Below are positions 9,389-13,830 of a stretch of DNA of 64,000 nt, piece after piece. Position 1 is the stretch's first letter; each line of letters starts with the position of its first letter. The stretch is from Yuukianura sp. NJ FZ-2021 (lineage: Eukaryota): positions 1,736,001-1,800,000 of the forward strand of contig CM102283.1 in NCBI GenBank assembly GCA_046563655.1, in the 5' to 3' direction. The notes under the pieces are model-generated. The model ran no database searches and was not told where the DNA came from. It worked only from the letters and a program-made list of their open reading frames with translations. Position numbers and translations under genes: made by a program.

Positions 9389-10676
9389 TCAGAAGAGGAT
9401 TTTGTTTTTCGGGAGTGTTTCGGCAAAGGAACGACGCACAAGCTTCGTGGAGTTACGTTTCGCTTTGATTGCTTTTCCCACGACAATGAGGGGCGGAGCA
9501 TCGGGTGCTGCTAGTACCGGGAGTGGTGGAAGCCGATGGGCAGCTGTGATTGGTCGAGCGGAGACGGCGGAAGGCTGTGATTGGACGACGGGAGGAACAA
9601 ATACCGGTGGAACCATTGACGGCATGCGGAATCTGTTGTCTAAGGCGTCCTGCCGAGCTGAGTTCAAATGGTACCGAGTTGTGGGAGCGTGAGCCGGTAC
9701 TGTTTCGACGAAACACTTGTCGGTACACTTGTGACGACCTTTGCGTAGAAACTGTGCATTTGCGAAAATTGAGCAGAGTTGTGTGTTTCGCTCGTTGAGG
9801 CAACCGAGAAACGAATTCAGTTTCGGTCCGCCGTCGAGCAAGCAGTCGCCCGGCACCGGTACTGTGAGTATACCGGACCATCGTCCCTGATGAAATCGAA
9901 CCCACCAACACGTTTCTCCTATCCAGTCAACCTGTAATTACAAAAATTCAAATGAATTACCTTGTAATTACTTAGTAATTACCCTCTAATTACTCTGTAA
10001 TTACTTTTCTTCCAAGTCGAGGACGTTAATTGTATCGTCAATTAAAGCGGATTTGAGCCAATAGTCTTCTTCGTTTGAAGGAGTGAAAGCCGGGGAACAA
10101 TTGACCTGAAATTGAATTACTTTAGAAAGTAATTCGTAATTAAGTAATTAATAATTGCAATTACTTCGAAAAGCCAAGGTTGTAGTTCATCATCAATCAA
10201 AACGTCGAAACCATAGATTTCAAAGCAATGTGAATCCTGAATGATGAGTTGATGAACACTCTAGAGTGTGCGCACTACAATGTTGTCAATTTGGTTCATC
10301 AGTTCTTGAATAGCAACTTCGCCATGACGAGTTCTACGCATGAGCAGAAAATTCATTTGTACATGTAATTACATTAGAATTTGTGTAAGTTTTAAGTAAT
10401 TTCATGAATTACGTCATGTACTCCCGCAATTACCCAAGGACCACGTTGGCCCCTGAAAATTCAAACGCTAATTACTCGATTACTTTGATTACTCGAATTT
10501 CGATTACTCAATTTTTTCTTACGATTGCTGGATTGTAGTCTTCTGGTGTACGTTGAATGGCGACATTTGTCAAGTGAATGTAAACGTCTTGGAGCGTGTC
10601 GATTGAAAATTGACGTTGTGAAAACCGTGCAAATCCTTCCCGGTACATCCAAGCTTTGAGCGGGTTAAATGACGTT
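9389..10676 (-). pseudogene. TTLL9: 3' half of a tubulin polyglutamylase TTLL9-like gene, 5'-truncated and disabled
   Basis: [50 protein letters not shown] and EKRVGGFD match the recalled TTLL9 C-terminal half. There is a TAG at about 9919-9921 where block B has TAT, and a 1-nt deletion near 10430. Confidence 0.8.
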
Positions 10677-10853
10677 AAACATCTTCGGGCCATTTCCGAA
10701 AGTGGGCGTGACTCGAATGAAATTGAAGACAAGACGAATAATTCACTTCTGCTAGATGATCCCACTACAACTGATGACCTCGACCGTCACAAAGTCACTC
10801 TGCTTCCTTCATCTCGTTCTCCTTCCGTGTCTTCGCGCATGACCGATGTCTAA
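10676..10853 (+). pseudogene. Orphan C-terminal tail of a second para-type sodium channel paralog
   Basis: [20 protein letters not shown]...HKVTLLPSSRSPSVSSRMTDV* is homologous but not identical to the end of the Nav at 49508-49666 ([20 protein letters not shown]...[10 protein letters not shown]). Confidence 0.8.
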
Positions 10854-11597
10854 ATTTTCAAAATCTCTAAAAATTCAAATAATGAAAGTGTTTTAAACAG
10901 TGCTAAAAAAGCAGGACCAATTTTGACAATGAAGACCAGAAGGTATACTGTCCATATTGTCCAAAAAAAAAAGCGCTTCAAAATTGTTGTTCAAAAAAAA
11001 TTCAGCTTCGAATTCGACTTTCAAATTGGAACAATTTTGCTAAAAAGTTTTAGTGTTTAACACTGTGATCAACGAATTAAGCCATTTGTGACCTTGCCAT
11101 TTCAACTTTCAATTTACAAAACTTTACAAAATTTTTGCGCCTCTCAATGTGAAATAAATGTGATATTGTCCGTGTGTTGCAGCTTCAAATTACGAAAAAG
11201 ACATTACAGCTCGATTTCATTGTTGTTTCTGCGCAGTGCAAATGTTTTAGGCTGCGCAGAAGACAAAATCAATATAATGAAAGGATTTTGCACTTTACAA
11301 GAAATCTTTTGTGCTCCAAAGACGCAATGCGCAAAACGAGCAAACTTTTTTCATCTTTCTTTTTTCTGCCAAAGAAAAGTGAAATTCCAGGAAAATCGAT
11401 CCTGCTGCCCCATTTTCCACTTTCACTTGACTTTCTCCTGAAGTGCTAAACATTCACACACGGCTTTTAGCACTCCGTTTTTGCTAAAAATAGGAATTCT
11501 AGGGGTCAAGTAAGGTTAAGGTTAGGTTATCTAACTTAAAACATGGAAATTTTTGAGGTTGACCTTTGACCTTTCCTAAGTTTGAGTAAAGCTCATC

Positions 11598-13830
11598 ATG
11601 TCGTCTGCTTCTGGAAGTATTGTGCATGACACGAGACCGCCATTTCGACCATTCACGAGAGATTCGCTAGTGCAAATTCAAAGCAGAATTGCGGAAGAAA
11701 ATGCAAAAAAGAGGGAACTGGAAAAGAAGCGGGCCGAAGGAGAAGTAAGTTTTTGTTTACTTAATTGTTTGCACTAATTAATAATATAATAAGTTAACTT
11801 CATTTGAAACTTTTTCTGCAATTTGAAACTTTTTCCTGTATGATTTCAAATGTTAAATTTAAAAGATATCAACGAATTTTCAAAAAGTTAACGTTTGCAG
11901 AATCAATTTCTGAAAAGCTGAAGTGCTGCTGCACTTTTGTGCTGCCGCAGTTTCCAAATATTAAAAGTAGTAATAATATATATATTAACTTATAAAATTA
12001 TATTATAAATTATAAATAAATTGAAATAATTATAACATAATTTTAAAAAATTTCCTTATCCCACTTCCTTTCAAAAAAAAGCTTTCAGTGTTTTCACGCT
12101 GTCGTCAGCTCACGTTTTTGCCCTGCCTCCATTTTTCAAAAAAAAAAAGTTAAGTCCACCGTCCTTTCCTTGCTTTCCAATTCATGTCACAACATTGTTG
12201 GTAAAAAATATTCAAAAAATTTGTTTTTGATATATACAAATACATAAACAAAAAATTTTCATTTTTTGGAAAACATTTTACAAAATTTTTCAAAATACTA
12301 AAAATTATTTGGAAAAAATTGGAAGAGTGAGGGTGTGTTTGTTGTATTGTTTCTCAGGAGGGAGACATTTATCGTAAAATCAAGAAAAGCAAAAAGGAAG
12401 TAAGAAAAACATTTAGACACCACACTGGTCAATGGGAATGAAATTTACACTATCATTTCAAATCATTTTTACTTAATTAGTTCAGTTCCTTAGTTTCTAG
12501 TTGGATGTCAGAGGTCGAACTTACAATTCATAGTCAATTAGTCCAATCAGTCAATTAGTTCAGAAATACAGTCAAGGAATAGTCTATAGTTTTCTAGTAC
12601 TAAATAGTGGAGGATTGTTGACATCCTCCAACAAAATTCAGCACGCTTAAAACGCCTGAAAACTTGCTTTCCGAATGAAAACAGCTTTCGTTTAGCATAG
12701 AAATCGTCTTGGCCTTTCAGTTTAACCATTTCAAATTCAACGTGACCTTTGACCTTCTGCAATTTTTTAAGGCTCGGTATGAAGAAGAGGATGAAGACGA
12801 AGGGCCACGTCCGAATGCTAACTTGGAACAGGGAATGCCACTGCCGATTCGACTGGCAGCAGCATTTGTGCCAGAACTGGCTTGTACGCCACTCGAGGAC
12901 ATTGACCCCTTCTATGCAAATCAGGCCGTAAGGTCACTTCCAGCCATTTTACTTTTGAGTTGACCTTCCATTCGGTTCATGGATTTCATTGGCTGCCATT
13001 CAAAGTAGACCCTGTAGTCGTAGGTATCGTTTCATTCCTTACATAGTATTGCATGGAAAAAGCTCAAATTTTTACCTCGTTTTCAGTTGCCAACTTCGGA
13101 GTTTTTGATTTTGAATATATGAAATTTTCGAAATTTTGAAACTGGTTAGACGTTCGTGATCGTGAGTAAGAAGAAGGACATTTTCCGGTTCAGTGCGACG
13201 GATGCTGTGTGGCTCCTGAGTCCCTTCAACCCCATTCGCCGTGTTGCCATCGCCATCTTGACGCATGGTCTCTTCACTCTCGTCATCATCACGACCATCC
13301 TCACGAACTGCATGGTCATGATCATGCAGTCACCAGTCACAGAGTCAACGGAGTAAGTGGCAACATTGCATGGCAACAGCATAACTTCCGTAGTCAACAT
13401 GTGTTAGACCTTTGTGTTGATCAAGTGGTTGTTGATCTAATTGTGTTGAACTAATTGTTGTTTGGTTGCAGAGTGATCTTCACTGCCATCTACACCGTAG
13501 AGAGTTGTGTGAAAGTGATGGCACGCTGATTCATCTTAGAAAAGTTCACATACCTTAGAGACCCTTGGATAGAAGAAGTTGAAGGAGGCGAAGAAGAGGA
13601 AGAAGAGGTCAAACCAGTGCATCATCATGGTCCACCGAAGGAAGAGGAAGAAGAGTACCCGCATGATTGTTGTCCACCAAGATTCTACGAAAGATTTCCG
13701 ATTTTCATGGTGGACGAAACGCCTTTCGGAGTGGGTTGGGCCAACTTGAGACTCAAAACGTTTCAGCTCATTGAAAACAAATACTTTGAAACGGCCCATC
13801 ATCATGATTCTACTGTCGTCTATGGCTTTG
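11598..13830 (+). pseudogene. para: Truncated, internally deleted duplicate of the para-type Nav gene
   Basis: Exons 1-5 are near-identical to 38806-41030, then the sequence jumps at TTGGA (13565-13569) to the homolog of 45792-46059. In-frame TGA at 13527-13529 (GGA in B) and a 2-nt deletion near 13795. Confidence 0.88.

Follow-up and report, generated by a model that had tools for sequence, protein, structure and literature searches.

Pyrethroids and many natural toxins act on voltage-gated sodium channels of the para type. Springtails are standard animals of soil ecotoxicology. In the available parts of the published reports, Daphnia and insects have one NaV1 gene and the copepod Calanus finmarchicus has several full NaV1 genes with transcriptome evidence (PMC3929608), polymorphic extra copies of Vgsc occur in ~10% of Culex quinquefasciatus mosquitoes (PMC5517494), and aphid channels are encoded by two half-channel genes with a DENS filter (PMC4954994). 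Here we describe a 64,000 bp stretch of DNA from Yuukianura sp. NJ FZ-2021 (GenBank assembly GCA_046563655.1, contig CM102283.1, positions 1,736,001 to 1,800,000), referred to below as the window, which contains a full-length para-type gene (Nav-2) and, fused to an opposite-strand piece of TTLL9, the orphaned last codons of a second channel gene (Nav-1). We consider it highly probable (about 0.9) that an ancestral tandem pair, Nav-1 then Nav-2, was split by a duplicative insertion that left the source genes intact. The window corresponds to G000:C1:1736001-1800000 of a 98.7 Mb assembly with 22 contigs; genome position equals 1736000 plus the window coordinate, and negative window coordinates lie upstream of the window. 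The structural findings come from this one assembly, with gene models derived from the DNA sequence alone.

The features at the junction and the full local channel gene are listed here.

9389-10675, minus strand: TTLL9 3' fragment, copy 1, a pseudogene holding codons 321-655 of the 655 amino acid gene on contig C5
10675 / 10676, no strand: TTLL9/Nav-1 junction, blunt, joining C5-type TTLL9 exon 4 to the last exon of Nav-1 with 0 bp of microhomology
10676-10853, plus strand: orphan Nav-1 tail, one base plus 58 codons plus TAA, with 6/178 bases differing from intact Nav-1
10854-11351, plus strand: copy of the Nav-1 3' flank, with AATAAA at 11153 and 48/473 sites differing from the flank at Nav-1; it ends the 656/676 bp overlap
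11352-11598, plus strand: 5' region of Nav-2, restricted to the two blocks of the window, with a 5' untranslated intron predicted from sequence at 11511-11580 (GT-AG)
38806-49666, plus strand: the full-length para-type gene Nav-2, modelled with 27 coding exons and 2049 amino acids, with an X at a +1 frameshift

The match to C5 stops at 10675 and the match to Nav-1 starts at 10676, with zero shared or inserted bases between the arms, both of which are broken mid-exon. A TTL domain is recognised on the minus strand to the left (Pfam PF03133, E 2.8e-14), in agreement with the original prediction, which was made from the sequence alone and described a Nav tail fused to an opposite-strand TTLL9 exon. 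The tail, fused to this foreign DNA, lacks the splice acceptor of its own exon. Exactly 745 bp separate its stop from the ATG at 11599; this ATG, which had been taken for the start of the local channel, belongs to a broken partial copy, Nav-2', and the full gene starts at 38806. The identical junction is present again at 35535 / 35536, as had been proposed for the second block, although the tail there is additionally split by a 2332-bp element. A genome search with the tail gave five matches, the best non-self one being the upstream gene Nav-1 (98% amino acid identity, E 3.5e-30), which excludes chance likeness. The two tail copies differ from Nav-1 at 6/178 and 4/178 bases and from Nav-2 at 37/154 and 38/154 bases, corresponding to DNA identities of 97-98% and 74-76%, and the tail is therefore from a different paralog than the local gene. 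It is also nearer to the Drosophila C-terminus than Nav-2 is, as suggested, but only slightly (by visual count, 9 of the last 13 residues agree vs 7).

Both source genes are whole elsewhere. Nav-1 (G000:C1:1708398-1719291, window -27602 to -16709) is located 17-28 kb upstream of the window. It is modelled with 28 exons, 2060 amino acids, GT-AG introns and zero internal stops, the linker exons being modelled from DNA. A TTLL9 search gave 11 matches, and the three at 95% or above are the two window copies and C5:10218097, where the gene is open over eight exons and 655 amino acids. The best species-named match of the TTLL9 source exon is Folsomia TTLL9 (74%), and named matches of the C5 gene are nearly all TTLL9, with one TTLL1 label, among the 120 listed, which makes TTLL9 its nearest named family. 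Homology between C5 and the window continues beyond TTLL9 through NIDO/VWA genes. The window fragments lack codons 1-320 and their frame is not open: a premature stop is common to both, near 10264 in copy 1, which also has a further stop and a 1-bp deletion near 9860. A chimeric TTLL9 protein starting from an in-frame ATG of the antisense Nav tail (open reading frame 10508-10786) was considered and rejected, because its reading frame would be closed by the shared stop in the second downstream exon.

No reciprocal junction was found in the assembly by searches with the domain IV exon, the TTLL9 5' half and the Nav-1 upstream region, in which the best candidates were scored. The domain IV exon gave ten matches, two near-identical loci and eight others at 31-59%, with no third near-identical Nav body; the TTLL9 5' half matched itself and two stretches of 37-45 bp, and the Nav-1 upstream region matched itself and 11 short repeats, with no second copy of either. 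Because the sources are whole and no second 5' parts were found, the net event was duplicative. A balanced inversion or translocation would be marked by a reciprocal junction and disrupted sources, and since Nav-1 and TTLL9 are both intact, the proposed cut that destroyed them is not borne out. Separately, a putative four-domain-channel relative at G000:C7:5780590-5780966 is 52-59% identical to the domain IV exon.

The ancestral order can be read from an overlap between the two sides of the insertion, in which the last 178 coding bases of Nav-1 and 478 bp of its flank are repeated at 10676-11351 (656/676 bp). The flank on the Nav-1 side passes into a beheaded CAP gene that starts at about codon 17, without its first 16 codons, signal peptide and 5' region, whereas 11/11 other CAP models start with a signal peptide. 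The Nav-1 side is thus the derived join, and the window side, from the flank to the Nav-2 start, is the old continuity, with Nav-1 followed by Nav-2 about 745 bp away; the tandem ancestry that had been proposed therefore holds. The beheaded CAP gene is otherwise open over six exons and carries one private change at 41 invariant columns, and without clear decay the left join looks young. At G000:C1:1719772 the join places a T-run and AG before the first CAP codon, resembling a splice acceptor, and a signal-less or chimeric message from this gene would be possible. The orphan tail, which shows no sign of function, is a relic, and so is the piece of TTLL9; the overlap is probably useful in that it leaves the Nav-2 upstream region in place. 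Extra conservation of the distal flank, as might be seen in a promoter, is not significant (8/152 vs 33/321 differing, p 0.08).

The inserted sequence is present as two blocks, and their components are as follows.

453-9388, no strand: inserted block, copy A, NIDO/VWA genes and spacers, main segments 86-98% identical to C5:10.203-10.217 Mb
11599-13990, plus strand: Nav-2', a partial pseudogene in which exons 1-5 are joined to a portion of exon 17
13987-14184, plus strand: 20-bp minisatellite joining block A to block B; an exact 34-mer from it occurs only here in the genome (3/3 matches)
14183-34216, no strand: inserted block, copy B, with CAP, VWA and NIDO/VWA genes, C5-like from ~20650
34217-35535, minus strand: TTLL9 3' fragment, copy 2, interrupted near 35123 by the same premature stop
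35536-38050, plus strand: second Nav-1 tail copy, split by a transposon
35586-37917, no strand: dispersed terminal-inverted-repeat element, 2332 bp, inserted 50 bp inside the second tail
G000:C1:1.7198-1.7337 Mb, window 14560-20650, C5:10.193-10.202 Mb and C3:14.1-14.6 Mb: loci of the CAP family

The changes common to both copies bear on the age of the junction. In TTLL9 they fall at 35/236 synonymous and 10/763 nonsynonymous sites (P 4e-11), and in the tail at 3/44 synonymous and 0/130 nonsynonymous sites (P 0.004-0.012), while neutral decay since duplication predicts ~48 and 4-6 replacement changes respectively. As the shared changes are mostly silent, the donors were working genes for most of the divergence and the right junction is young. 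The stop common to both TTLL9 fragments arose before the block duplication, and the junction thus predates that duplication, as claimed originally. Noncoding changes common to both copies amount to 12.5% (61/488) and 8.7% (41/473) for the two donors (p 0.06). Blocks A and B differ by ~2% around the junction. Beyond the Nav-2 start the difference is much larger: Nav-2' differs from Nav-2 at 32/192 synonymous and 4/660 nonsynonymous sites, and by 5.5-12.7% in three intron stretches, a pattern that reads as working haplotypes of that divergence recombined onto a young junction; divergence on this haplotype scale would make diverged alleles the likelier templates of the inserted block.

These observations suggest the following course of events. 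A tandem duplication, presumably old, placed Nav-1 and Nav-2 in head-to-tail order with ~745 bp between them, and gene conversion has since kept the transmembrane exons and short introns alike, a pattern seen directly in the two genes. A recent chromosome break may then have occurred within the spacer, 478 bp past the stop of Nav-1, and its repair would have copied a C5-type block of at least 27 kb, from inside a CAP gene to inside TTLL9 exon 4, and returned to C1 at a point ~0.66 kb upstream of the break, in the last exon of Nav-1 on a diverged homolog. Both junctions and the overlap are present in the assembly, and template switching in a single event is a plausible way to generate them. The templates would have been working genes on haplotypes whose neutral sites differed by ~6-15% from those of the surviving copies, judging from the synonymous excess. 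A later duplication of the stretch from a VWA gene to Nav-2 intron 17, directly visible in the repeated structure, gave block B, after which the first Nav-2 copy decayed and the second tail gained its transposon, both of which are seen in the present sequence. Templated insertion of the fork stalling and template switching or microhomology-mediated break-induced replication (FoSTeS/MMBIR) type leaves an ectopic block between two junctions and a short duplication of the recipient site with the sources intact; the two junctions, ectopic block, recipient overlap and intact sources are all found here. Because the two breakpoints lie less than 0.7 kb apart on a 23-kb Nav pair, one event explains them without coincidence, and we lean slightly towards this single-event repair version.

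Several points weigh against this account. Template switching often leaves some microhomology at junctions, and the right junction has none. For the left junction no donor was identified: genome searches gave no source for the C1 CAP genes or the left part of the block, the nine C1 CAP genes are at most 64% identical in amino acids to the three on C5, and the best DNA match elsewhere is 75%. The CAP decay test is weak, since other CAP genes carry 0-5 private changes; the synonymous difference between Nav-2' and Nav-2 may come partly from conversion with Nav-1; and the 6-15% template divergence is an estimate from the synonymous excess. Support throughout comes from the assembly; five DNA-type sequencing runs from two studies are listed, with no RNA data set among them.

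One alternative, possible though doubtful, is that the block once held a whole working second TTLL9 and Nav-1 head to head, that a blunt deletion fused their 3' ends, and that a separate deletion made the left join. This would explain the synonymous excess without high allelic diversity, accounts for the blunt junction and the opposite-strand fusion without inversion, and agrees with the similar noncoding divergence of the two donors; however, it needs two independent young breakpoints within 0.7 kb of each other on the Nav pair, the searches above gave neither a leftover of a third Nav body nor a second TTLL9 5' half, and allele-scale divergence of equal size is seen between Nav-2' and Nav-2. 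We regard as more unlikely still a C1/C5 translocation that cut Nav-1 and TTLL9 on one haplotype, followed by exchange with an intact homolog that restored Nav-1 and left the C5 piece. Taken formally, the right junction joins two working genes, with C5 on the left and C1 on the right, but searches of the assembly gave no reciprocal product, both genes are intact and two events are needed; an inversion, the other mechanism put forward originally, cannot join C1 to C5 sequence.

Artefact is a very unlikely source of the structure, whether as a chimera at the junction or as two alleles, A and B, written in tandem. The A/B divergence is partly haplotype-like, being 2% near the junction and 5-19% farther away. 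A chimera would match its sources, however, whereas the arms differ by 2-10% from theirs, share a stop and differ from each other, and we consider it very unlikely that the junction is artefactual. For the tandem A/B arrangement taken separately an artefact is improbable to a lesser degree; the A/B join carries a unique minisatellite, and the several lesions of Nav-2' are what a redundant copy would be expected to gather. Finally, the 73% amino acid similarity of the tail to the last exon of Nav-2 might suggest an old partial duplicate of that exon at a sole Nav locus, but there are two Nav loci, and the DNA identities of 97-98% to Nav-1 vs 74-76% to Nav-2, together with a 3' flank that matches Nav-1 only, leave this a negligible chance.

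Several further observations concern the blocks. Nav-2' is the product of a 4.76-kb deletion with 5-bp microhomology at ~13565-13569 and carries a stop at ~13527 and a 2-bp deletion at ~13797. The element in the second tail has a nested fold-back element at its bases 459-871 and a flanking duplication of either AATTG (5 bp) or AATT (4 bp). Tandem repeats of 42 bp (21562-22785) and 21/123 bp (1-484) are located where A/B divergence switches from ~19% to ~5%, possibly marking an exchange point. The CAP family is fast-evolving, with 12 modelled genes only 49-77% identical, and gene sets that differ between block A, block B and C5, which would suggest hyper-divergent haplotypes; in its spliced model, CAP gene h2 carries one additional intron of 219 bp (19790-20008). 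Between the block B CAP genes, at 17202-17954, a 250 amino acid open frame resembles by eye the C-terminal part of a long interspersed nuclear element (LINE) reverse transcriptase, and it gave no Pfam match. The 12-mer TGACCTTTGACC occurs at 11560, 12743, 38768, 39959, 41684, 43547, 50712 and 55967 (seven plus-strand and one minus-strand match), ten times in the 120 kb upstream and also in C5 TTLL9 introns, often intronic near splice sites. We take it to resemble a nuclear-receptor DR1 element, and a role as a signal for splicing or regulation is possible.

Nav-1 and Nav-2 are identical at 1814/2036 aligned residues (89%). In an alignment with insect para both show QDYWE, GEWIE, FKGWI, SAGWD and MFMT, which contain the DEKA filter and the MFM inactivation motif, and both fall within the arthropod para clade in two trees; by these four-domain features we assign them to the para/Nav1-type voltage-gated sodium channels. 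They are each other's closest relatives (support 100/100), with equal branch lengths of 0.068 each, and relative-rate tests were not significant in 12/12 outgroups nor in a second, overlapping set of 12/12, such that the idea of Nav-2 as the derived paralog is not upheld. Fourfold sites differ at 189/760 positions, distributed unevenly over 28 exons (chi2 89, df 27, p 1e-8), and the Sawyer conversion statistic was reached by 0/5000 permutations. Among 26 intron pairs compared, 10/15 of similar length are 81-96% identical, with a control maximum of 73% in 139 pairs. This pattern is clear evidence of concerted evolution by non-allelic gene conversion. Silent divergence is saturated in exons 1 and 12 and below 0.1 in exons 6 and 16, and amino acid differences range from 0/143 codons in exons 4-6 and 0/82 in exon 27 to 14/49 in exon 26 and 24/109 in exon 21, which encodes the domain III turret and pore loop. 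An intron between a 30-bp exon and the next (Nav-1 -23029 to -22910) is absent from Nav-2 (43786-43995) and would represent a gain or loss between the two. The residue after KGWI in the domain III pore loop, which presumably adjoins the M1240 tetrodotoxin site, differs between the two (Q in Nav-1, P in Nav-2) and is variable among other springtail paralogs too. M1240 is listed as a tetrodotoxin site, and turret and loop regions are variable in other Nav families too, in the available part of PMC8476164; selection against conversion is accordingly not shown for Nav-1 and Nav-2.

As assembled, Nav-2 has one extra base at ~47128-47131, in the domain III S4-S5 linker and at the border of two single-base runs, and a weak GC donor after 46876 (46877-46882), ~250 bp upstream of the extra base. 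The ratio of nonsynonymous to synonymous divergence from Nav-1 is 0.13 before the break and 0.16 after it, a similar level of constraint. The assembler could have combined the two alleles of a heterozygous silent site into an insertion; a recent pseudogene could equally well carry two lesions at so short a distance. On balance we marginally favour a working gene. The protein databases gave no protein from this species among the best 120 of 5700 and the best 120 of 1598 matches, so that the protein searches do not test the frameshift. A further scenario is that both channels work, the frameshift being an assembly error, and that selection keeps the outward loops (domain III turret, post-KGWI residue, domain IV loop) different despite conversion; Nav-1 and Nav-2 would then be a toxin- or insecticide-sensitive and -resistant pair in a hexapod, with shared regulation recently uncoupled by the 55-kb insertion. 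We consider this scenario unlikely.

In a tree of 31 proteins, from which Allacma was left out, Nav-1 and Nav-2 cluster with Orchesella and Folsomia proteins with a Shimodaira-Hasegawa-like approximate likelihood ratio support (SH-aLRT) of 100, and the host is thus most likely a springtail (Collembola) and not an insect. The original argument from insects with one para gene loses its footing here, as at least three divergent para-type proteins are found in Orchesella dallaii and at least two in Folsomia candida among the database matches listed. No report of duplicated para genes in springtails was found in the literature titles or abstract openings listed, although supplements of genome papers may list Nav copy numbers; the words 'springtail' and 'aphid' are absent from the available part of PMC6259924.

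Two converted, 89%-identical para genes and three decoy fragments will confuse genotyping of knockdown resistance (kdr) and annotation, and the Nav-2 frameshift and GC donor matter for any annotation or kdr reading of the gene. The pair is also a natural test of which channel parts resist homogenisation. The order of steps in the rearrangement can be reconstructed, and the rearrangement gives a hint that haplotype divergence is very high.

The closest described channels are springtail Nav1 proteins, with identities of 73% to Allacma fusca P0121, 69-71% to Orchesella dallaii P0036, P0046 and P0119, and 66-67% to Folsomia candida P0065 and P0072. These belong to the same clade, more than one divergent para-type protein occurs per species, and the T929V-equivalent residue is shared. 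Set apart from these, Nav-1 and Nav-2 are mutually closest (100/100), such that the pair is either lineage-specific or homogenised; the three Orchesella dallaii proteins are listed with contigs of different lengths. Calanus finmarchicus likewise has several full Nav1 genes in a pancrustacean, but the available part of that report describes neither tandem arrangement nor conversion (PMC3929608). Culex and aphids also depart from one para gene in hexapods (PMC5517494, PMC4954994), whereas here there are two full-length DEKA genes, 11% diverged. Salamander Nav paralogs, in the available part of their description, resemble this locus in tandem arrangement, exchange of tracts, a detached copy of a 3' end near its parent and variable turrets, but the salamander duplicate exon is expressed and lies ~180 kb downstream, whereas here a 58-codon tail is fused to foreign DNA (PMC8476164); no toxin link is shown for the springtail pair. 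From FoSTeS/MMBIR-type insertions the locus differs in its blunt right junction and in templates estimated to be 6-15% off the surviving loci at neutral sites. A converted tandem para pair in a springtail would thus appear to be a variant on the known multi-Nav1 and tandem-Nav cases that is itself new.

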